Assembly (NCBI GenBank): GCA_018660465.1
Contig: JABJKH010000041.1
Location: 6,650-70,649, forward strand
Direction of reading: 5' to 3'
Origin: Rhodospirillaceae bacterium
Lineage (GTDB): Bacteria; Pseudomonadota; Alphaproteobacteria; Rhodospirillales; JABJKH01
DNA: 64,000 nt
The notes below the pieces were generated by a model. That model was not told the DNA's origin. It searched no databases and saw only the letters and a list, made by a program, of their open reading frames with translations. A program made the position numbers and the translations under genes. Shown here one piece after another: positions 30,664-57,671 of the stretch (positions are counted from its first letter, which is position 1; each line of letters begins with the position of its first letter).

Positions 30664-31197
30664 CTACCCCTGCGGCGTCAAATTCAGTGTCCGAATAAAA
30701 ACCTGCATGCCGTAGTTGATGGTCATGTAGTTGCCGAGTTCCATGATTTGGGCTTCGGAGAAGTGGGTCTTACCTTCGTCGTAGAACGCCTTATCGACCT
30801 TTGCGGGTTCCCGGTACATCAGGTAGCCGTAGCGGAACGCCCATTTGTGGGCGTCGCTAAACTGGGGTTCGTTTTCAAAGTCGCCACAGGCAGCCTCAAT
30901 CAATTCTTCAGTCAGGCCCCGTTTCATGGCCTTCTTCGATCTGAGGGAGGCGAAGTACTTGTCCCCTGCCAGCCTGGCCAACTGAATGCGAATGGCTTCT
31001 TTCAGGCGCACGTCCAAGCCACCGTTTTCATACGCCTGGCGCATGGCGTTGAACAGGGCCTCGGCATAATTGGGCGCGTGAGCCAACACCTCAAAGAACT
31101 GCTTATCGGCAATCCCCAGGTCTTCGGCCAAGGCCATGTATTCCTTAATCTTCGGCTTCTCTAAGTTTTCAGCCGGCGCGGAGTCAATGTAAGCCAT
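30664..31197 (-). CDS. Carboxymuconolactone decarboxylase (AhpD-like) family protein, Cys-less paralog
   Basis: 177 aa, colinear with the neighbouring AhpD-like selenoprotein. KEAIRIQLARLAGDKYFASLRS aligns with KEIIRIQLSRHAVCNYUGNVRS. Confidence 0.75.
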   Translation of the reverse strand: MAYIDSAPAENLEKPKIKEYMALAEDLGIADKQFFEVLAHAPNYAEALFNAMRQAYENGGLDVRLKEAIRIQLARLAGDKYFASLRSKKAMKRGLTEELIEAACGDFENEPQFSDAHKWAFRYGYLMYREPAKVDKAFYDEGKTHFSEAQIMELGNYMTINYGMQVFIRTLNLTPQG

Positions 31198-31212: not shown

Positions 31213-31869
31213 CTATTCAGCAGCCGAGTCGGGCGCTAAATCTAAAGCGCGCTCCATCGCCCCTTCGGTGTGGGATATTGGCGTCGTGCCATAGATTTCT
31301 TTTGATTCTTCCTGGCTGACCAGCCGTCCGTCCGGCGAGAACATCGGATAGAAATCCAATGTCCCAAAGAACGTGTGGAAACCAATGTTAACGCCAATGT
31401 AGGTGCCGAGCTCGACAATTTCTTCCGACGAATAATACTTTTTCAAGTCGTCGTAGAACGCTTCGTCGATCTTGTCTAAATCCGACGCCATGTATTCGCT
31501 ATAACGCAGCGCTGCCTTTTCGGCATCGGTAAACCGGTCGCTGGCTTCATAGTTATTGATGCCTTCGTCGATGTCTTCTTCCGTCAATCCTTGCTGCTTC
31601 GCCGAAGCAGACCGCACGTTGCCTCAATAATTACAGACGGCGTGCCGGGACAGTTGGATTCGAATGATCTCTTTTAGCTTGTGATCGACCACGCCGGAAT
31701 TAAACACCGTGCCCCACGCCACATACATGGCTTCGGACAGGTCCGGGTTGTGGCCCTGCATGGCATGGAACGCCGGGTCCGGCGCACGGTGCTTCAGGGC
31801 CTTCTTAATATAAGGCGCAAGCTTGGTCTTATTCAGCTCATCGATATCAAGCATCGAAATATTAGGCAT
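31213..31869 (-). CDS. AhpD-like (carboxymuconolactone decarboxylase family) predicted selenoprotein with C-x-x-U motif (TGA at 31624-31626)
   Basis: ORFs 31624-31869 and 31213-31617 share one frame and are separated only by TGA. The joined sequence is ...LSRHAVCNY-U-GNVRSASAKQQGLTEEDI.... It aligns with the downstream paralog across the stop, and the CxxU sits where AhpD has CxxC. Confidence 0.8.
31594..31610 (-). promoter_or_regulatory. Candidate SECIS hairpin for the AhpD-like TGA
   Basis: On the minus-strand RNA the hairpin is CUGCUUC-GGC-GAAGCAG (perfect 7-bp stem, or 6 bp with a CGGCG loop). It begins 13 nt after the UGA. Confidence 0.4.
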
Positions 31870-44182: not shown

Positions 44183-45040
44183 ATGAACACCCCATTGGCG
44201 ACACAGGATTCGGTCGAAACTCCTTCAGGTAAAGACGCCGCCTACGAGAACTTTCCGGTGGGCTCATGGCTGTTGCCAGCGCATCTCCGCCCACATATCG
44301 CTGTGTATTATAACTTTGCCCGTGCGATTGATGACATCGCCGATAATCCTGACACCCAGCCCGACGAAAAAATTAAACGCCTCAGTGAATTTGAACGCGC
44401 CGTGCTGGGCGAAGGCGACCCCGACCCGCTCTATGCGACCGGCCACCGTATGCGCGACAGCCTGAATGAAACCGGCACCACGCCCCAGCACTGCCTGGAC
44501 TTGGTCGATGCTTTTAAACAAGACGCGGTCAAAGGGCGCTACGACGACTGGGACGATCTGATGCACTACTGCATTCGCTCAGCAGCCCCCGTTGGACGCT
44601 ACCTATTGGATATTCACGGCGGATCAGTCGATGGCTATGGCCCGTCGGATGCGCTGTGTAATGCGCTGCAAGTGATCAATCATCTTCAGGACTGCCAGGA
44701 CGATTATCAGACCATGGACCGGGTGTATCTGCCGGGCGACTGGATGGCGGCACATGGTGGCACGGTCGAACAATTGGATCAGGACAAGGCATCCCCCGGG
44801 ATCAGAAAAGTCATTGATCAGTGCCTAGACGCAACAGACGAACTCATGATCGAAGCGCGGCGTTTGCCCGCGGGATTAAAGTCCAAACGTCTGGCCATGG
44901 AATCCGCCTTCATCGTCCGTATTGCCGATGCCTTGATTAAGCGCTTGCGGAATGAAGACCCGGTGGCGGGGCGGGTGCAGTTAAGTAAGCCCCAGTTTGT
45001 CTGGTGTGGCATTCGGGGCGTTGGTTCGGTTTTATTTTGA
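44183..45040 (+). CDS. hpnC: Hydroxysqualene synthase HpnC (squalene/phytoene synthase family)
   Basis: ENFPV, ARAIDDIADNP and LQDCQDDYQ.DRVYLP Asp-rich motifs. Context with hpnD, hpnE and shc supports the call. Confidence 0.8.
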   Translation: MNTPLATQDSVETPSGKDAAYENFPVGSWLLPAHLRPHIAVYYNFARAIDDIADNPDTQPDEKIKRLSEFERAVLGEGDPDPLYATGHRMRDSLNETGTTPQHCLDLVDAFKQDAVKGRYDDWDDLMHYCIRSAAPVGRYLLDIHGGSVDGYGPSDALCNALQVINHLQDCQDDYQTMDRVYLPGDWMAAHGGTVEQLDQDKASPGIRKVIDQCLDATDELMIEARRLPAGLKSKRLAMESAFIVRIADALIKRLRNEDPVAGRVQLSKPQFVWCGIRGVGSVLF

Positions 45041-45065
45041 GGGAGATGTTGGAGCTTAACAATGC

Positions 45066-45165
45066 GTCCTTCGAGACGCCGCTTTGCGGCTCCTCAGGAT
45101 GAAGAATATTATTGAATAAAAAATCTTCATCCTGAGGAGCGCGAGAATTGCGCGTCTCGAAGGGT
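45066..45165. repeat. Intergenic nested-palindrome element, copy 3 (between hpnC and hpnB)
   Basis: Outer arms are CCTTCGAGAC (45068-45077) and GTCTCGAAGG (45154-45163). Inner arms are TCCTCAGGATGAAG and CTTCATCCTGAGGA. Side hairpins are GCCGC-TTT-GCGGC and GCGC-GAGAATT-GCGC. Confidence 0.9.
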
Positions 45166-45190
45166 CTGAGCGAAACTCACTAGATATATC

Positions 45191-46330
45191 ATGATACAAC
45201 GCCTCCTCCCCTTCCTCCCCTTCGCCATCTGGATCGGTCTCATCCTGTTCAGAGGCAACTTTTGGCGCTCGGATCAAATTACGTCCGGAGAAGCCAAAGA
45301 CTTGGACTCATGGCCCAACGTCACCGCTGTCATACCGGCGCGCAACGAGGCCCCTTCCATCGGGGCGACGGTCGAGACCTTGTTGGCGCAGGATTATCCG
45401 GGCTCCCTCTCAGTCGTAGTCGTTGACGACAACAGCGACGATGGCACGGCAGACGTCGCACGTGCCGCCGCAGGAGATCGGGCAGACAAACTCACGGTCG
45501 TCAGCGGCAAGCCCTTGGAAGCTGGATGGAGCGGTAAGCTGTGGGCCGTAAGCCAAGGCATCGAAGGCGCCACCACGTCCGACTACATTTGGCTGACCGA
45601 TGCCGACATCACGCACACGCCGGGAAACCTGCGCTGGCTGGTGGCCAAGGCGGAGGTAGAAAAACTCGATCTGGTTTCCGAAATGGTCATGCTGCGCTGT
45701 GAAAGCTTTTGGGAGCGCTTGCTGATCCCGGCCTTTATTTTCTTTTTCCAAAAGCTGTATCCCTTCCCCCAGGTTAACAACCCGGACCATGCTGTCGCCG
45801 CAGCCGCCGGCGGTTGTGTATTGGTCAAGCGGAAGGCCTTGGCAGATGCGGGCGGCATTGCCGCGATTAAGGACAAGTTGATCGACGATTGCGCCCTGGC
45901 GGCGATCATCAAGGCTCGCGGGCCGATTTGGTTGGGCCTGACCGAACGCGCGCACAGTTTGCGAGTCTATAATCATTTGAGCGAAATCTGGCACATGGTC
46001 GCCCGCACCGCGTTCGTGCAGTTGGATCATTCGGTCCTGCAACTGATCGGCACCGTCGTCGGCATGGCAATCATTTATCTGGCGGCACCGATCATGGCGA
46101 TCTGGAGCGGCATCACGGGAGATGAACTTTTAGGGCTTGCCGGCGGTGGTGCTTGGCTGGTGATGGCGATCACATTTTTGCCAACGCTGAGACTGTATAA
46201 AATGAACCCAGCCTGGGCGATGGCGTTGCCGCTGGCCGGGTTGATTTATACAGCCATGACCGTTGATTCCGCTCGCCAACATTGGGCCGGGCGCGGCGGG
46301 GCCTGGAAGGGGCGGAGTTATAGTTCTTGA
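45191..46330 (+). CDS. hpnB: Hopene-associated family 2 glycosyltransferase (HpnB-like)
   Basis: N-terminal TM, then the GT2 motifs VIPARNEA and VVVVDDNSDDGT, then C-terminal TMs. It sits inside the hpn cluster. Confidence 0.7.
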   Translation: MIQRLLPFLPFAIWIGLILFRGNFWRSDQITSGEAKDLDSWPNVTAVIPARNEAPSIGATVETLLAQDYPGSLSVVVVDDNSDDGTADVARAAAGDRADKLTVVSGKPLEAGWSGKLWAVSQGIEGATTSDYIWLTDADITHTPGNLRWLVAKAEVEKLDLVSEMVMLRCESFWERLLIPAFIFFFQKLYPFPQVNNPDHAVAAAAGGCVLVKRKALADAGGIAAIKDKLIDDCALAAIIKARGPIWLGLTERAHSLRVYNHLSEIWHMVARTAFVQLDHSVLQLIGTVVGMAIIYLAAPIMAIWSGITGDELLGLAGGGAWLVMAITFLPTLRLYKMNPAWAMALPLAGLIYTAMTVDSARQHWAGRGGAWKGRSYSS

Positions 46331-46370
46331 CCCGTGACGTTCAGTAAAAGGTGGTGTATCCATACTCGTC

Positions 46371-47237
46371 ATGAATGAGATAGCGACAAATACTGAGATC
46401 GAGACTGATCCAGCAGCCCATGCAGAAGAAGTCGTGCGCCGATCTGGCTCATCATTCTTCTGGGCGATGCGGCGCTTACCGACGGAAAAGCGTCAGGCGA
46501 TGTATGCCATCTATGCGTTCTGCCGCGAAGTCGATGACATTGCCGATGATCCGGGCGAGGAAGAAACCAAGCGCTTCCAACTTGGTCAATGGCGCGGTGA
46601 AGTCACCCGCATATTCGCCGAAAGTGCCCGCCTCCCCACGGCCAAAGCCTTGATCCAACCCGTGGAACGCTACAACCTGCCGCAGCAAGATTTCCATGCC
46701 ATGATCGACGGCATGGAGATGGATGCTGGCAACTCTGTGCGCATTGCCAATATGGCTGAGCTGGAACTTTATTGTGACCGGGTCGCGTGCTCGGTTGGGC
46801 GCATGTCGAACATGGTTTTCGGTATTGAAAAAGAATTGGGAGACAAGGTCGCCTTCTCCCTCGGTCAAGCACTGCAACTCACGAACATCCTCCGCGATGT
46901 TGCCGAAGACGCCGAACGCGACCGGCTGTACCTGCCCCAGGATTTGCTCATCGCCCACGGCATCGACAGCACGAACATTGATGAAGTGCTGACCCATCCG
47001 CGCCTGTCGGATGTGTGTGAGCTGTTGGCTGAAGTCGCCAAACGCCGGTTCACGGAATCTCGCGAGCTCTTAGCACAGTGCAACCGCGTTCAAATGCGCC
47101 CGGCGATCATGATGATGGAAGTCTATGATGCGATCATGAAACAGTTGTTTGTGCGTGGCTGGAAAAATATCGATATCCCCGTCAAGCTGAGCAAAGTCAA
47201 GAAGCTGTGGGTCGCCTTCCGCTACGGCATGTTGTAG
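46371..47237 (+). CDS. hpnD: Presqualene diphosphate synthase HpnD (squalene/phytoene synthase family)
   Basis: SSFFWAMR, YAFCREVDDIADDPG and NILRDVAEDAERDRLYLP motifs. Confidence 0.8.
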   Translation: MNEIATNTEIETDPAAHAEEVVRRSGSSFFWAMRRLPTEKRQAMYAIYAFCREVDDIADDPGEEETKRFQLGQWRGEVTRIFAESARLPTAKALIQPVERYNLPQQDFHAMIDGMEMDAGNSVRIANMAELELYCDRVACSVGRMSNMVFGIEKELGDKVAFSLGQALQLTNILRDVAEDAERDRLYLPQDLLIAHGIDSTNIDEVLTHPRLSDVCELLAEVAKRRFTESRELLAQCNRVQMRPAIMMMEVYDAIMKQLFVRGWKNIDIPVKLSKVKKLWVAFRYGML

Positions 47238-47241
47238 CACG

Positions 47242-48489
47242 GTGGCTGGCCATATTCATATCATCGGGGCTGGGGTGGCAGGGCTTTCGTGCGCTGTATC
47301 CCTCACCGAACGAGGCGAGTCTGTAACGCTGTATGAAGCCGCCGGCCACGCCGGTGGGCGGTGTCGTTCCTATGAAGATGCGGCTCTGGGTCGGCGCATC
47401 GACAACGGCAATCACTTGTTGCTGAGTGGTAACAGCTCAGCCATGGCCTACCTGAAAATAATTGGTGCGTCCGATAGCCTGACAGGACCAGAGACGGCAA
47501 GCTATCCTTTCGTCGATTTAAAGTCCGGCGAACGCTGGACCGTGCGCCCCAACAAGGGGGTGCTGCCGTGGTGGGTGTTTTGTGAAAACCGCCGGGTGCC
47601 AGGAACGAATGCCTGGGATTACCTGAAGGCACTGCGTCTGGCACTTGCCGGCAAGAACGACACACTCGCCAAATGCCTCGGCAACAGCGGCCCGCTGTTC
47701 GAGCGGTTTTGGGAACCGTTAGGAGTTGCTGTCCTGAACACCGATGCGAACGAAGCGGCGGCGGCGCTCTTGTGGCCCGTCATGAAAGAAGCTTTTGGCA
47801 AAGGCGAAGACTTCTGCCGCCCGCGCATTGCCCGCGAAGGCTTGAGCGAAAGCTTTGTTGACCCTGCCCTCGCCTATTTGAAGGGGCACGACGCGGACGT
47901 TAATCTCAACACCCGGGTCCGGACAATCACGTTAGACAACGAACGGACAACATCCTTAGACTTGGGCGACAAAACGGTGAGCTTGGACGAAGATGATGTC
48001 TTGGTGCTTGCGGTACCGCCTGCAGTCGCGTCTTCGTTACTGCCCGACCTTACCGTTCCTCTGGAAACCCGGGCGATTGTGAACGGGCATTTTATTTTGG
48101 ACGCGCCCAGAAGTGACGAGCTCAGTTTCATGGGCCTTGTCGGCAGCGTCAGTCAGTGGCTGTTCGTGCGCGGTGAAGTCGCCTCGGTCACGGTCAGCGC
48201 CGCAGATAAGCTGGCCGAACAACCCGCCGAAGAAATTGCCGAGACTCTCTGGAAAGAGGTTGCGAAAGCCCTGGAACTGGGCGATAAGCCCCTTCCGGCG
48301 CACCGCATTGTTAAGGAAAAGCGCGCGACTTTTGCGCAAACGCCGGAAGACGTTTCGAGACGACCAGGCCCTGTTACTGCCTGGTCGAATTTGTTTCTGG
48401 CAGGAGATTGGACCAACACAGGCCTGCCCGCTACCCTTGAAGGGGCGATTAGGTCGGGCCGAATCGCTGCAAATAGAATCACTCAATAA
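47242..48489 (+). CDS. hpnE: Hydroxysqualene dehydroxylase HpnE (FAD-dependent amine-oxidase fold)
   Basis: IIGAGVAGLS dinucleotide-binding motif at the N-terminus and LAGDWT near the C-terminus. Its position between hpnD and shc supports the call. Start codon is GTG. Confidence 0.8.
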   Translation: MAGHIHIIGAGVAGLSCAVSLTERGESVTLYEAAGHAGGRCRSYEDAALGRRIDNGNHLLLSGNSSAMAYLKIIGASDSLTGPETASYPFVDLKSGERWTVRPNKGVLPWWVFCENRRVPGTNAWDYLKALRLALAGKNDTLAKCLGNSGPLFERFWEPLGVAVLNTDANEAAAALLWPVMKEAFGKGEDFCRPRIAREGLSESFVDPALAYLKGHDADVNLNTRVRTITLDNERTTSLDLGDKTVSLDEDDVLVLAVPPAVASSLLPDLTVPLETRAIVNGHFILDAPRSDELSFMGLVGSVSQWLFVRGEVASVTVSAADKLAEQPAEEIAETLWKEVAKALELGDKPLPAHRIVKEKRATFAQTPEDVSRRPGPVTAWSNLFLAGDWTNTGLPATLEGAIRSGRIAANRITQ

Positions 48490-48520
48490 GGCACTAGACT
48501 CTTGACAAACATGGACCTTT

Positions 48521-50623
48521 TTGGCCATTTTGAGAGCTTGGGACCAAGTGTTAAACGGGATTTACGGGGTCGACGTGAATTTATTAGACTCAGCACTGCA
48601 ATCCGATCGTTCTTCGGTCGTAGAGCAACTGCGCCCGGATCACGTCCAAAACCCCCAGCAAAACCCCCAGCAAAACCCCCAAAAAAACCCTCAGCAAAGC
48701 CCTCGGAATAACCAAGATCAAAATCAAAAAATCGACGCGATTATCGCCAAGGCCAAGGCCTGGATGGAAGACCAACAGGCCGAAGATGGGTCCTGGTCGT
48801 TTGAGCTGGAAGCCGACGTCACCATCCCCGCTGAATACATTCTTCTGAACCATTTCCTAGGCACAATCGACGACGAAATTGAAGCCAAGCTGGCAGAATA
48901 CATCCGCCGCACCCAAGGCTCACACGGCGGCTGGCCGCTGTATCACGACGGTGATCTCAACATGAGCGCGTCGGTAAAGGCTTATCTGGCACTGAAATTA
49001 ACCGGCGAAGACCCTGAAGCCCCGCACATGACCTGGGCGCTGAACGCCATTCGTAATCACGGTGGTGCTGAAAGGGTCAATGTCTTCACGTTGTTTGCCC
49101 TGGCGTTGTTTGGGCAAGTCCCCTGGAGTGCGGTACCGGTGATGCGGGTCGAGGCGATGCTGCTGCCGAAATGGGCGCTGTTCCATATCGATAAAGTTTC
49201 GTATTGGTCGCGGACCGTGATGGTGCCGTTGTTGGTCTTGGCGGCGTTGCGTCCCGAAGCCAAGAACCCGCGCAATGTCGATATCAAGGAATTGTTCCTA
49301 ACGCCGCCGGATGAGGTGAAAACCTTTCTGACAAACCCGACCGGCAGCTGGCTCGGCCGGGTGATGTTGGGGGTTGATAAGCTTGCTCGGTATGTCGAGC
49401 CCTTCGTGCCGCAATCTTGGCAGCAGAAAGGCATCGATAAGGCCCTGGTATTTATCGAAGAACGCTTGAACGGTGAAGACGGTCTGGGCGGTATCTTCCC
49501 GGCGATGGCCAATGCGCTGATGATGTACGATACGTTGGGCCACGATAAAAACGACGAAAAATGCAAAATCATCCGTAAATCCATCGACAACCTTTTAATT
49601 CTGCATGACGACTGGGGCTACTGCCAGCCGTGTCTGTCGCCGGTCTGGGATACAGGTCTTGGCGCGTTAGCGATGCAGGAAGCCGGCGTCACCCACGACG
49701 ATGAGCGCCTGCGTAAAGCCTGCGAGTGGTTGGTCAACCGACAGATCACCGAAGTTGAAGGCGACTGGACTGCCAACCGTGGTAATATCCGCCCTGGCGG
49801 CTGGGCGTTCCAATATTGGAACGACTATTACCCTGATGTTGATGACACGGCAGTCGTGGTGATGGCACTGCATCGCGCTGATCCTGAAAAATATAAGGAC
49901 GCCATTGACCGTGGTACGGAATGGATCATCGGCATGCAGTCCAAAAATGGTGGCTGGGGTGCCTTCGATGCGGACAACGAACATTACTTCTTACAGAACA
50001 TCCCGTTCGCCGATCATGGCGCGTTGCTGGACCCACCAACAGCAGATGTGAGTGCGCGCTGCATCTGCATGCTGGCGCAATTGGGCTATGACAAAAATCA
50101 CCCGGTGGTTAAAAAAGCTCTTAAGTATCTTCGCGCTGAACAGGAAGACAACGGCTCCTGGTTCGGACGCTGGGGCAATAACTATGTGTACGGGACTTGG
50201 TCGGTATTGAACGCCTATTGCGCACTCGGCAAAGACATGTCGGCACCGCACATCCAAAAAGCCAAAGACTGGTTGATCTCTTGCCAGCGGCCCGATGGCG
50301 GCTGGGGCGAAGACTGCGCCACTTATTGGCAGCACCGCCGCGATGAAGTTAAGACCAGCACGCCGTCACAAACATCCTGGGCAATGTTGGGCCTGATGGC
50401 GGTCGGCGAAGTCGACAATGACGCCGTGCACCGCGGTGTTGAATATCTACTGGAAGCACCGCGCAACGGCAAATGGGTCGAAGAATATTTCAACGCCGTC
50501 GGCTTCCCGCGGATCTTCTATCTCCGCTACCACGGATACAGTGGCTATTTCCCGCTGTGGACCCTGGCACGCTACCGCAATCTGATGGACAGCAACGATA
50601 AGTTCCCTAAGTTTGGGATGTAA
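48521..50623 (+). CDS. shc: Squalene-hopene cyclase with an N-terminal Q/N/P-rich repeat extension
   Basis: DGSWSFELEADVTIPAEYILLNHFLG, repeated QW-type motifs (GGWG...), and the catalytic DVDDTAVVVMAL (DxDD). The start codon is uncertain. Confidence 0.9.
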   Translation: MAILRAWDQVLNGIYGVDVNLLDSALQSDRSSVVEQLRPDHVQNPQQNPQQNPQKNPQQSPRNNQDQNQKIDAIIAKAKAWMEDQQAEDGSWSFELEADVTIPAEYILLNHFLGTIDDEIEAKLAEYIRRTQGSHGGWPLYHDGDLNMSASVKAYLALKLTGEDPEAPHMTWALNAIRNHGGAERVNVFTLFALALFGQVPWSAVPVMRVEAMLLPKWALFHIDKVSYWSRTVMVPLLVLAALRPEAKNPRNVDIKELFLTPPDEVKTFLTNPTGSWLGRVMLGVDKLARYVEPFVPQSWQQKGIDKALVFIEERLNGEDGLGGIFPAMANALMMYDTLGHDKNDEKCKIIRKSIDNLLILHDDWGYCQPCLSPVWDTGLGALAMQEAGVTHDDERLRKACEWLVNRQITEVEGDWTANRGNIRPGGWAFQYWNDYYPDVDDTAVVVMALHRADPEKYKDAIDRGTEWIIGMQSKNGGWGAFDADNEHYFLQNIPFADHGALLDPPTADVSARCICMLAQLGYDKNHPVVKKALKYLRAEQEDNGSWFGRWGNNYVYGTWSVLNAYCALGKDMSAPHIQKAKDWLISCQRPDGGWGEDCATYWQHRRDEVKTSTPSQTSWAMLGLMAVGEVDNDAVHRGVEYLLEAPRNGKWVEEYFNAVGFPRIFYLRYHGYSGYFPLWTLARYRNLMDSNDKFPKFGM
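48647..48705. repeat. 12-bp tandem repeat (CAAAACCCCCAG-like, about 4-5 degenerating copies) inside the shc 5' region
   Basis: Read directly from the sequence: caaaacccccag caaaacccccag caaaaccccca aaaaaaccctcag caaagccctcgg. In the shc frame it encodes NPQQNPQQNPQKNPQQSP. Confidence 0.85.
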
Positions 50624-54786: not shown

Positions 54787-54810
54787 CGTGATTCCTCTGG
54801 AAATTCAAAT

Positions 54811-54840
54811 AAAAAAAGGCCCGCCTTTATTGAGCGGACC
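54811..54840 (-). terminator. Rho-independent terminator after the GrdB-like gene
   Basis: On the minus-strand RNA: GGUCCGC-UCAAUAAAG-GCGGGCC followed by UUUUUUUAUUU. It lies 29 nt past the stop at 54869-54871. Confidence 0.6.
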
Positions 54841-54868
54841 TTTCTTTAAGCAGTCTACTTTAGTTCCG

Positions 54869-56086
54869 TCAAACGTGTTTCAACATTGCGTTCGGAACGT
54901 AGGCCGTTCGTCCCATTGTTTGCAGGGCCTCGGTCTCATGACCCAGGCACAGTTCCCGCAATTTGATGAACAGCTTTCCGGCAAGGGTTTCTCCGTAATA
55001 CCAATCACTGATTTGAACATCGGAAACACTTCCGGGTTTCGCCATTGCCGCCTGATAATAGAAATATTTCAGATCATCAGCGGTTAGCTTCAACGCACGG
55101 CCAATTGGCTGGCCTTCCATGAAGCTGTCGATGCTCGGGTCGTCAACAAAGCTAACTAGGAAATCGATGATCTCCTCGGGCGAATATTCGGTCAGACCAT
55201 CTAATCTCCGACCCTTAAAGTTCTTGATCGATTCTTCATACCACGGACGCAGCAGGACGACTTCTTGCTTCAAATCCAAGGCGAGTTTTTCTGCATCGCT
55301 TAGATCATTCTGTGGAGCCGCCAAGTTTACCGGGCAGGTCCAGCCTTCCATATCCGCCGGTGGCCCCGGAGGCGCATCGGGGAAATCTTCGATGAACGGC
55401 CCGTCATTGCGTTCGAGCAATTTAAGCGCACCCAACAGGACCCGGCGTTGAAAATCCGGCTCATTCGGCGCGCCAAACGGACGCCCCAGTTCAAACGGTA
55501 CGAACAGTGCCCGCGGTGGACGCAGGCCTTCGGTGTGTTTTCGGATCAAGCTGATTTGCGTCGTCGGCAAACCTTCGCGTTCCAAGTAGTGTGCCAGCCC
55601 GCCCACGGCGCGCGTGCATTGAGGTCAAACGCCAGCGAGGATAACCCCGGTCACGTTGTCACTTTTCAAAAGTCCCGCCAGATCCTTGGAAACAGCAGCA
55701 TGTGCCATCGGCGGTGTCGCCCCCATAAAGGCGTAATGATAGTCGGCAACTTCGCCAACATCGCCACTTGCTGCCAGTTCTCTCAAACGCTCAATCGGGA
55801 AGACAATGTTGAGGTCCTGTTGAAATCCCGTGCGATCAAAGTTGGTGGAAACGTGGCTCATGATCAGATCATCCATATCCGTATCGTTGGGGATGATTCG
55901 GTATTCACCGACACCTGGGGTGAATTCTTTATCTTCGCGGCGGTGCAAACCTGCCGTTGTAATGATCGCGACTTTTCGTTCGTTGAGCGCCGGGCCATCA
56001 GCGCAAGTTGTATCGTCATAATCAGGCAGATCCTGATTGACGATCATGTTGCGCTGCTTTTCCGGCATGTCTGATAAATGGGCCAT
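54869..56086 (-). CDS. GrdB/PrdB-like (glycine/sarcosine/betaine/D-proline reductase selenoprotein B family) predicted selenoprotein, U-x-x-C (TGA at 55625-55627)
   Basis: ORFs 55625-56086 and 54869-55606 are in one frame, and the 18-nt gap has no other stop. The joined sequence is ...NVTGVILAGV-U-PQCTRAVGGLAHYLEREGLPTTQ.... Family-typical stretches VAIITTAGLH, MSHVSTNFDRTGFQQD.N and FPIERLRELA are present. Confidence 0.75.
55592..55618 (-). promoter_or_regulatory. Candidate SECIS stem-loop for the GrdB-like TGA
   Basis: On the minus-strand RNA, UGCACGCGCGCC-GUG-GGCGGGCUGGCA can form an interrupted GC-rich stem of about 11 bp with a GUG apical loop. It starts 6 nt after the UGA. It was folded by eye only. 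Confidence 0.3.
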
Positions 56087-56200: not shown

Positions 56201-56521
56201 TTACGAGAACGTTGCCAATTCTTTGGTTTTGACCGCAGTCGACTGCCGCATCATTTCTTCGGCGATCTCGATCAGGTCTTTCTTATAGGCGTCTGCATCA
56301 AAGCCATCTTCAAAATAGCCTTCTTCGACGCCCCGGTCGACCGTGCTCAGCGCGTACCAGATCACTTCATATACCTTGTCATAGCAAAATGAGTTCGCAC
56401 CGCCTTCAAGAACCTGTATTCCTGCGAGATCAAACAGGCCGGCATCCTCTCTGTTTGATCCATTTGAAAGGGCCGTGGCCGTGGCTTCTTGGGTCAAGCG
56501 CAAGATCAAGTCGGTATTCAT
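56201..56521 (-). CDS. Hypothetical protein between selU and the GrdB-like gene
   Basis: From the ATG at 56521 the product is 106 aa (MNTDLILRLTQEATATALSNG...). The longer ORF-track version would overlap selU. No family was recognised. Confidence 0.4.
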   Translation of the reverse strand: MNTDLILRLTQEATATALSNGSNREDAGLFDLAGIQVLEGGANSFCYDKVYEVIWYALSTVDRGVEEGYFEDGFDADAYKKDLIEIAEEMMRQSTAVKTKELATFS

Positions 56522-56558: not shown

Positions 56559-57671
56559 TCACAATAGGCTTCTTTCTTTGGCCCACTCAAGCACCTCATC
56601 ATACGATCCGTGAAATATGATTTTATCGGATTGTTTGCCGAGTTGGTATTCACACATCGGGTCGTAATAATCAGCCAACAGCGCCACGATCCAGCCTTCG
56701 TGATCACTGGTGTCGTCCTGTTCTTCCTGCTTCTTCAGCGCGGCGTCCATCAAGGCCGAAATCTTTTGGTATCTTTCCAGCCCCAGCCGCCGTTTCACGC
56801 GCATAAGACTTTGAGTTAAATAATCGACAAACAGCTCAAACCCATTGTCTGGATGCGCCTCCAGGAACTCCTGCGTCATTTCAATGACATACTCCCGCAA
56901 GATGCATTGCACCCGGTCCGCCACCGGCATTTCCACGATCGCCACATCAGCCGCGCGCATTTTATCGTAGAAATCTTTTGGGATTGTACTGGGGCCAATC
57001 GACTGGCTTTCATCTTCGACGATTAAAGTGCGGCCTTGAAAGGCGTGGCGCTTCTGCAGCAATTCAATGCCGAGAGCGTTCTCAAAATCAATTTGTGACG
57101 GCACACCGGAAACCCTGTAGCCAAAGCTTGAGCCGCGATGATTGGCATGACCTTCCAAATCGATGCTGAAGTCGACGGCATTGACCAGGGCCGTCTTCCG
57201 GGTGCCCGTCTTGCCGCCGATCCGGATGATCGGCACTTCTGCCGCCGCCTTATCAATTGTGTCGATCAACAGCCGCCGGAGCGCCTTGAACCCACCATCG
57301 ATCAAGGGCACATCGACCCCTGCTTCATGCATCCATTGTCGGGCATAATTGGACCGCATGCCGCCGCGCCAGCAATACATGTGGGTGTTCGCGTTGGCCT
57401 TGGCGAAGTCGCACCAGGCTTGAATGCGTTGATCCTTGGTGTCGCCCGCGACCAACTTGTGGCCCAGTTCGACCGCGGCTTCCCGACCCTTCTGCTTATA
57501 GCAGGTGCCGACCAATTGACGTTCGTCGTCGTTTAGGATTGGGATGTTTTTAGACGTTGGAAAACCACCCTTGGCAAATTCAACCTCCGCCCGCACATCC
57601 AAAAACGGCGTGTGCGCCAGAAACAGATCCCTAAATTCTTCAGAACGAACGATGTGGTCTAGCATTTTCAA
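56559..57671 (-). CDS. selU: tRNA 2-selenouridine synthase (SelU/MnmH/YbbB)
   Basis: N-terminal rhodanese domain with the active-site loop YCWRGGMRS, then the P-loop GGKTGTRKT. Length is 370 aa and the overall pattern matches the YbbB family. Confidence 0.85.
   Translation of the reverse strand: MKMLDHIVRSEEFRDLFLAHTPFLDVRAEVEFAKGGFPTSKNIPILNDDERQLVGTCYKQKGREAAVELGHKLVAGDTKDQRIQAWCDFAKANANTHMYCWRGGMRSNYARQWMHEAGVDVPLIDGGFKALRRLLIDTIDKAAAEVPIIRIGGKTGTRKTALVNAVDFSIDLEGHANHRGSSFGYRVSGVPSQIDFENALGIELLQKRHAFQGRTLIVEDESQSIGPSTIPKDFYDKMRAADVAIVEMPVADRVQCILREYVIEMTQEFLEAHPDNGFELFVDYLTQSLMRVKRRLGLERYQKISALMDAALKKQEEQDDTSDHEGWIVALLADYYDPMCEYQLGKQSDKIIFHGSYDEVLEWAKERSLL

Follow-up and report, generated by a model that had tools for sequence, protein, structure and literature searches.

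What does an in-frame TGA encode when it divides a gene into two open reading frames (ORFs), and what does the resulting protein do? We address these questions for a locus in a 64,000-nt stretch of the Rhodospirillaceae bacterium contig JABJKH010000041.1; this whole stretch (64 kb) is referred to as the window, and all coordinates are counted within it. Two minus-strand ORFs, 55625-56086 (153 aa) and 54869-55606, lie in the same frame, and the sole stop that separates them is the TGA at 55625-55627. A preliminary description of this DNA proposed that the pair is one gene for a 405-residue GrdB/PrdB-like reductase, with the TGA read as selenocysteine (Sec) in a U-x-x-C center; the frame, the coordinates, and the length are correct. 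The center of the joined product reads …VILAGV-U-PQCTRAVGGLAHYLEREGLPTTQISLI…, and the readthrough sequence around Sec is …VILAGV-U-PQCTRAVGGLAHYLE…. The gene also ends on a TGA (54869-54871). We conclude that the locus is one intact gene and that its internal TGA encodes selenocysteine. In our overall reading, to which we assign a probability of roughly 0.85, the product is a UGA-read Sec protein with a PrdB-like domain and a C-terminal helical domain, one that stands alone and acts on a substrate other than D-proline.

The first line of evidence is conservation of the codon. One genome per species was scanned; at least 578 genomes encode relatives, and the best 80 loci were examined at the TGA site. 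An in-frame stop occurs at exactly the position of the window TGA in 80 of 80. These loci span Rhodospirillaceae, other Alphaproteobacteria, Desulfobacterota, Burkholderiales, Gammaproteobacteria, Chloroflexota, and one metagenome-assembled genome (MAG) of Clostridiales, and across them both halves of the gene are under purifying selection. When the codon was read directly at 84 extracted sites, representing 81 distinct sequences, it was TGA at every one, the tandem duplicates in loci L009 and L011 included.

The second line is a set of homologs in which the codon is replaced. The Sec column is occupied by cysteine (Cys) in the full-length homologs P0015, P0064, P0067, P0070, P0075, and P0080 (alignment A1). 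Continuous homologs in the databases are few, measure 369-436 aa, and carry motifs such as PVCLLCTRA and PVCPNCTRA. Comparison of the Sec/Cys state across relatives, a check that the preliminary description had called for, thus gives TGA in the Sec forms and Cys in the continuous homologs; together with the stop at 80 of 80 loci, it bears out the reading of the UGA as Sec in a U-x-x-C center.

The third line is an RNA hairpin immediately downstream. A GC-rich stem with a GUG loop had been noted at 55592-55618; it is present there, and comparative analysis supports it. In an ungapped alignment of 51 nt around the codon, the upper stem is ACGCGCGCC/GGCG(C/G)GCU, and the hairpin is kept in 81 distinct gene copies. 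Covariation is strong: 13 cells are changed on both sides of the stem, whereas column shuffles give 2.3 and none of 500 comes as high, with compensatory changes from CG to UA seven times at one pair and from GC to AU at others. The paired fraction is 80%, against 29-55% in a control with the pairing partners slid. Because the stem overlaps codons of a conserved peptide, synonymous sites were checked as well. For the Thr, Ala, and Gly codons of the stem, the entropy at the third position is 0.24-0.34 bits, whereas 47 four-fold codons of equal conservation in the rest of the gene average 1.67 bits, with a minimum of 1.04. Of 72 sequences, 68 encode the stem Arg by CGC; other conserved Arg columns are mixed and use all six codons. 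The Val codon of the loop is free, at 1.3 bits. We count the hairpin as real because of this conservation, covariation, and reduced synonymous variation in comparison. Tandem paralog pairs occur in two loci (L009, at 6460 and 7702; L011, at 5183 and 6460), and every copy has both the TGA and the hairpin.

The bacterial criteria for a selenocysteine insertion sequence (SECIS), as implemented in bSECISearch, call for a stem-loop 3' of the UGA with a conserved apical G(U) about 16-37 nt from it. Here, the loop GU lies at +22/+23, and the stem is backed by covariation and synonymous constraint. By analogy with characterized elements, the hairpin would act as a bacterial SECIS that recruits SelB. 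The Cys forms differ in whether they retain it. The closest of them, P0015 (L085 6001-7110), has TGC for TGA and keeps the complete hairpin (-15.8 kcal/mol when folded into the family structure). The hairpin has been lost in the more distant Cys clade, found in L087 and L088: with the family structure imposed, P0067 reaches -6.7 kcal/mol and P0080 +3.9 kcal/mol, as compared to -14 to -16. The P0015 hairpin looks like the fossil SECIS of a recent Sec-to-Cys switch.

These observations bear directly on the simplest alternative, in which the TGA is a true stop and the locus is a pseudogene, the site of a sequencing error, or a pair of separate polypeptides. Gene callers annotate two ORFs everywhere, and a GTG is present 7 codons past the TGA, as this alternative would have it. 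However, all 80 loci, across phyla, keep the stop at this codon, with purifying selection on both halves, which rules out a sequencing error; the existence of continuous Cys-form homologs shows that the orthologs are not two polypeptides. As the invariant SECIS loop, the GTG is explained without any ribosome-binding site, and the hairpin carries both covariation and synonymous constraint. Sequencing error and genuinely split orthologs, two of the three outcomes that the preliminary description had singled out as damaging, therefore do not apply. The true-stop or pseudogene explanation is effectively refuted already, and we leave it next to no chance.

The fourth and fifth lines concern Sec machinery and selenium use. 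In four loci (L007, L009, L052, and L062), tRNA-SeC is encoded within a few kb of the ortholog, and a Pyr_redox_2-SelD fusion lies within 6 kb of the ortholog in 8 of 79 loci. In the window, the gene for the tRNA 2-selenouridine synthase MnmH is the next but one upstream; between it and the selenoprotein gene is a 106-aa ORF (56201-56521) without known family. MnmH, the 106-aa ORF, and AtzH-like neighbors are restricted to the window's own lineage. In addition, the window carries a second probable selenoprotein gene, of CMD/AhpD-like type. A Pfam CMD match (E 1.7e-8) spans its TGA, and a perfect 7-bp hairpin, CUGCUUC-GGC-GAAGCAG, follows the UGA at +17 to +33. We infer Sec decoding in the source genome from MnmH, this second candidate, and the orthologous loci. 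Hence, five independent lines support Sec: conservation, the Sec/Cys pair, the RNA hairpin, Sec machinery, and selenium use.

If the protein contains Sec, to which family does it belong? As judged by profile comparison, it is homologous to the GrdB/PrdB superfamily. On the joined sequence, Pfam GRDB (PF07355) matches residues 33-151 at E 7.8e-9, with 35.7 bits against a gathering score of 22; the family fit that had been proposed without searches holds, and the similarity, the lack of which was named as a counterargument, is significant. The alignment covers profile positions 222-345 of 347 and ends at residue 151, three residues short of Sec. The GRDB domain annotation thus misses the active site and the rest of the PrdB-like domain, and the PF07355 profile may have been built from TGA-truncated sequences.

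The best NCBIfam match is TIGR04483, PrdB (E 3.6e-27), which aligns residues 33-225 to model positions 26-219 of 238 and scores 95.4 bits against an equivalog cutoff of 300. The GrdB/GrdF/GrdH models align through their C-terminal halves only, at positions ~203-422, with scores and cutoffs of 43.9 and 602.2 (TIGR01917), 51.3 and 65.45 (TIGR01918), 56.6 and 800 (NF040794), and 56.2 and 775 (NF040795). The window protein is therefore below every curated NCBIfam cutoff of the PrdB and GrdB-type models. Its U154-P-Q-C157 matches the GRDB-superfamily motif, as judged by motif and not by column-level alignment; UxxC is the motif listed for PrdB and GrdB (PMC1088965; PMC2398784; PMC13188914). In sum, the protein departs from a PrdB equivalog in score, in prd gene neighbors, and in the single-domain length of 238 positions; it departs from protein B of the glycine, sarcosine, and betaine reductases in scores, in full-length (~430 aa) coverage, and in grdA/grdE/grdC/D partners.

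The architecture of the protein also sets it apart. The C-terminal ~180 residues (~229-405) match no Pfam family at E <= 1, the families of Grd and Prd components included. Searches of the PDB by sequence and by family profile returned nothing significant, and Foldseek returned no match at E <= 1e-3. A weak resemblance to DsrC over residues 271-326 (E 0.32) is non-significant. To view the fold, we modeled P0015, the closest Cys form and 48% identical to the window protein, with AlphaFold2 (predicted local distance difference test, pLDDT, 90; predicted template modeling score, pTM, 0.88). In this model, an α/β domain is followed by a ~30-residue low-confidence linker (pLDDT ~68) and then by a helical bundle. 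The U/C position falls between a strand (114-118) and the N-terminus of a helix (122-137); such a junction is the usual setting of redox-active CxxC motifs. Residues U154, P155, C157, T158, H78, S80, D84, and N93 are invariant in the 80 joined Sec forms, as are P190-P191-R192 and G201-R202-P203. Cys251 is present in 79 of 80 family sequences and is invariant in alignment A1. With its predicted place in the linker, Cys251 is a candidate third redox residue.

The position of Cys251 raises the possibility of self-processing: cleavage at this residue would leave an N-terminal pyruvoyl group on the C-terminal domain, such that a single chain would combine a PrdA-like and a PrdB-like part. In PrdA and GrdE, the pyruvoyl group arises from a Cys at an internal cleavage site, according to a work cited in one of the marine surveys (PMC1088965, its reference 27). 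A near-invariant Cys in an exposed, low-confidence linker, predicted to lie exactly between two domains, would suit such a cleavage. However, the position immediately before Cys251 varies among T, A, F, and V; no Pfam family, those of Grd and Prd components included, resembles the C-terminal domain; and no experimental result hints at processing. We regard self-processing as decidedly unlikely.

Does the enzyme have a partner? The preliminary description stated that no reductase partners are adjacent and flagged this as unusual. The absence is borne out: GrdA, GrdC/D/E, PrdA, PrdC, thioredoxin, and thioredoxin reductase are all absent among the ORFs scanned in the window, and a scan of the window for split CxxU/UxxC ORFs found nothing GrdA-like. 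It is a property of the whole family, however, and not peculiar to this organism. Every ORF up to ±5.5 kb from the gene was clustered at 79 loci. No neighbor is common to more than ~10 of the 79, and no PrdA, GrdE, or GrdA partner appears; standing alone is thus a family trait. The clusters that at first ranked highest were shadow ORFs overlapping the selenoprotein gene itself. The neighbors that do recur are lineage-specific and without a common theme. They include the SelD fusion; a CoA-transferase III and a D-2-hydroxyacid dehydrogenase that adjoin the gene in one group of Rhodospirillaceae; and an HTH-MEDS (helix-turn-helix) regulator and DUF547 in Desulfobacterota. By comparison, characterized GrdB/PrdB-type enzymes are operonic with a GrdE/PrdA-type subunit (PMC13188914; PMC10838667).

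Taken together, the profile, length, and neighborhood data permit an evaluation of the current name, namely that the protein is a genuine PrdB subunit of D-proline reductase whose PrdA partner is encoded elsewhere in the genome. TIGR04483 is indeed the best NCBIfam match, with nearly the whole model covered; the U-x-x-C motif agrees with that listed for PrdB; and names in IMG and NCBI say PrdB or D-proline reductase. Against this, 95 bits stand versus a cutoff of 300, and ~180 extra residues have no PrdB counterpart. Neither the window nor the 79 loci have a PrdA, PrdC, or proline-racemase-like neighbor, whereas known prd and grd genes are operonic (PMC13188914). Moreover, marine Rhodospirillaceae and Burkholderiales MAGs are among the hosts, and the family is plentiful in samples from the surface ocean. 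A true PrdB subunit is, on these grounds, highly improbable.

We infer that the protein works on its own and on a substrate other than D-proline; self-sufficiency follows from the lack of a PrdA/GrdE pyruvoyl partner or a GrdA acceptor near family members. At the level of translation, the UGA at 55625-55627 would be read as Sec with the help of the hairpin 9-35 nt downstream, which, by analogy, would recruit SelB·GTP·Sec-tRNA(Sec); this complex would bind the GU loop while the ribosome sits at the UGA. The terminal UGA has no such hairpin, and translation would stop there. At the level of catalysis, Andreesen's mechanism is said to be the model for the GrdB/PrdB cycle. If the window protein behaves like these enzymes, the U154 selenolate would attack the bound substrate, Cys157 would resolve the adduct to yield a selenenyl-sulfide (Se-S), and a cellular thiol system would reduce the Se-S bond and regenerate the enzyme. 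The C-terminal domain, perhaps together with Cys251, could replace the missing partner and supply substrate binding.

In its most specific form, this proposal holds that the family is a self-contained Sec-dependent enzyme and not a proline reductase subunit. The pyruvoyl partner would be replaced by the helical domain together with a third catalytic Cys carried on a mobile linker, and the substrate would possibly be an abundant marine small molecule or a selenium or sulfur species linked to SelD and MnmH. We advance this version tentatively, at slightly less than even odds. If true, it would place among the most abundant selenoproteins of the ocean one with undiscovered chemistry.

The linkage to selenium genes also admits a role in selenium or sulfur trafficking instead of catabolism; the protein might, for instance, be a selenium carrier or reductant for SelD and MnmH that operates through a relay of U154, C157, and a mobile Cys251. 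Such a role would agree with MnmH in the window, with the NADH-oxidoreductase-SelD fusion in 8 of 79 loci and tRNA-SeC in 4, with the third conserved Cys on a flexible linker, and with the faint DsrC resemblance. Yet the linkage occurs in only ~10% of loci, selenoprotein genes are often near Sec machinery for non-functional reasons, the DsrC match is non-significant, and the gene persists without this linkage in Desulfobacterota, a group with many other selenoproteins. We consider trafficking unlikely.

Several points weigh against the stand-alone Sec enzyme that we favor. The genes selA, selB, selC, and selD are absent from the window (no tRNA genes; ORF scans). Folded singly, the hairpin is no stabler than shuffled sequence (z = 0.73), a comparison that is uninformative because the sequence is GC-rich and coding. 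No Rfam model matches, either across the window at gathering score or at the site at E <= 10. The partner search covered ±6 kb per locus, and a partner could be encoded farther off. Finally, support for the function of the family is computational throughout, for every member.

The family is not new: it has been a known selenoprotein family since 2005. The Sargasso Sea's selenoproteome lists 'Proline reductase PrdB', with a UxxC motif, as the third most abundant selenoprotein, with 42 genes (2005, PMC1088965). The Global Ocean Sampling (GOS) selenoproteome counts 235 forms with Sec and 110 with Cys across 38 samples (2008, PMC2398784). Orthologs of the window protein (AACY01068648, AACY01016836, JCVI_READ_600877) are catalogued in their supplements under this name (PMC1088965, PMC2398784). 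In the Sargasso supplement, the motif CTRAV appears 8 times and PPRAL 10 times; in the GOS supplement, the counts are 59 and 53, respectively. The same family probably accounts for the 'proline reductase' reported for Geobacter uraniumreducens, Anaeromyxobacter dehalogenans, and the Olavius δ1 symbiont; the symbiont has five 'proline reductase' copies, and locus L036 comes from it. Reviews from 2022 and 2026 still group such proteins under D-proline reductase. In the searchable literature, which is incomplete, no paper turned up that distinguishes the stand-alone family of ~400 aa from true PrdB, or that assigns or tests a function for it.

Database annotation has followed the gene callers. 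Split products identical to those of the window are already deposited in three NCBI MAG assemblies; NCBI names the N-terminal fragment of the window 'selenoprotein B glycine/betaine/sarcosine/D-proline reductase', and IMG names relatives 'D-proline reductase (dithiol) PrdB'. The C-terminal half is matched by 936 clusters at 50% identity, and in 149 of the best 150 cluster representatives among these matches, the database protein is a fragment. Most fragments start ~17 residues before the query start, at the SECIS-loop GUG. In the window, the GUG at 55604-55606 is the mistaken start of a 245-aa 'C-terminal ORF' ('hypothetical protein'), and hundreds of database fragments begin MGGLAH… because the loop GUG was taken as a start codon. 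Since fragments dominate the C-terminal matches, Sec forms dominate the family and are systematically mis-called. The locus is thus a textbook case of gene callers breaking up a selenoprotein, in which only the N-terminal piece gets a name. The catalogued name of the family, 'proline reductase PrdB', probably does not fit. An abundant marine selenoprotein family bears a designation that present evidence does not support, because there is no partner subunit, there is an extra domain, and scores fall under all curated cutoffs. The residual value of the locus lies in this mismatch between name and anatomy, and the function is now a testable question. The coordinates of the features are collected in Table 1.

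Table 1. Positions of the selenoprotein gene, its elements, and associated features in the window
Feature	Position	Strand	Basis and details
Complete selenoprotein gene, 405 codons and terminal TGA	54869..56086	-	ATG at 56086, AAAGGA before it
Sec codon, in-frame UGA (U154)	55625..55627	-	Stop at the same position in 80/80 related loci; Cys in full-length homologs
Cys157 codon, Cys of the U-x-x-C center	55616..55618	-	Invariant in 80/80 joined family sequences
Putative SECIS-type hairpin within the coding sequence	55592..55618	-	Lower stem 55615-55618/55592-55595; upper stem 55607-55613/55597-55603; alignment A2
Apical loop GUG	55604..55606	-	G and U invariant, +22/+23 from the U of UGA
PrdB-like α/β domain, residues 33-225	55412..55990	-	TIGR04483 and Pfam GRDB matches; AlphaFold2 model of Cys-form homolog, pLDDT 90
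Cys251 codon, W-x-C-P-V-N motif, predicted flexible inter-domain linker	55334..55336	-	Cys in 79/80 family sequences
Family-specific C-terminal helical domain (predicted), residues ~229-405	54872..55402	-	Absent from PrdB and GrdB
Intrinsic-terminator-like hairpin and T-run, immediately 3' of the gene	54810..54848	-	Sequence reading
tRNA 2-selenouridine synthase MnmH (SelU), same strand, upstream	56559..57671	-	NF008751, 473 bits, cutoff 361
Second probable selenoprotein gene, CMD/AhpD-like	31213-31869, TGA at 31624-31626	-	Motif C79-N-Y-U82 (CxxU)

Further observations concern the surroundings of these genes. A second CMD-family gene, without a TGA, lies directly downstream of the CMD/AhpD-like gene (30664-31197, minus strand). 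Elsewhere in the window, 44183-50623 on the plus strand is a hopanoid biosynthesis cluster with two squalene/phytoene-synthase-family genes, a glycosyltransferase, an amine-oxidase-type gene, and a squalene-hopene cyclase (TIGR01507, 761 bits). Among the orthologous loci, selenium-utilization clusters that combine the ortholog, the SelD fusion, and tRNA-SeC occur in Alphaproteobacteria (L007 2923-5038; L009 9823-11921; L052 1510-3254; L062 2805-3797). At L087 5272-9676, the Cys form P0067 belongs to a same-strand run with a glutathione S-transferase, a TauD-family dioxygenase that overlaps its 3' end, and two short-chain dehydrogenases/reductases; a flavin monooxygenase (FMO)-like gene and a DSBA-family gene are nearby. 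Such neighbors may suggest that the Cys clade takes part in xenobiotic or organosulfur catabolism.

How does the window protein compare with known systems? The nearest described relatives are the marine 'PrdB' proteins of Zhang and Gladyshev, which share the signature V-P-V-U-P-x-C-T-x-A-V…PPRALWVPF.LGRP.G…W.CPV…LL.PWY…GRT.VG, the long C-terminal domain, UxxC, and Pfam07355; there are no structural differences. What differs is the interpretation: these papers take the family for proline reductase without discussing the absence of PrdA or the extra domain, and the published 'PrdB' bin also holds other subfamilies, such as …VPSuGLCNQTV… and …VPNUPVCHQTV… (PMC1088965, PMC2398784).

PrdB of Clostridium sticklandii and C. 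difficile (TIGR04483) is homologous over essentially its whole length and places Sec, the presumed nucleophile, in UxxC at a similar distance from the N-terminus. In contrast, the window protein has 405 aa versus a model of 238 positions and a third conserved Cys; no PrdA pyruvoyl partner or prdC/D/E/F operon was found near its gene, and its family occurs in non-Stickland organisms. GrdB, GrdF, and GrdH (PF07355, TIGR01917/01918), as well as FarB, a proposed GrdB-like fluoroacetate reductase (PMC10838667), are Sec-dependent members of the same superfamily, in which substrates are known to diversify. The window protein lacks the N-terminal ~220 residues of GrdB, GrdF, and GrdH and aligns to their C-terminal half. 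Its gene has no GrdE, GrdA, or GrdC/D nearby, whereas every characterized member, FarB included, uses a GrdE-type partner.

At the RNA level, the point of comparison is the SECIS of Escherichia coli fdhF. The window loop differs in having 3 nt (5 nt if the closing C-G opens), the window hairpin has no obvious bulged U, and its stem has a G·G mismatch in about half of the family sequences. The fdhF element presents its apical G and U at positions 23 and 24, as compared to +22/+23 in the window hairpin. In both, a stem-loop lies within the ORF immediately 3' of the UGA, carries an apical GU, and is kept by compensatory changes.

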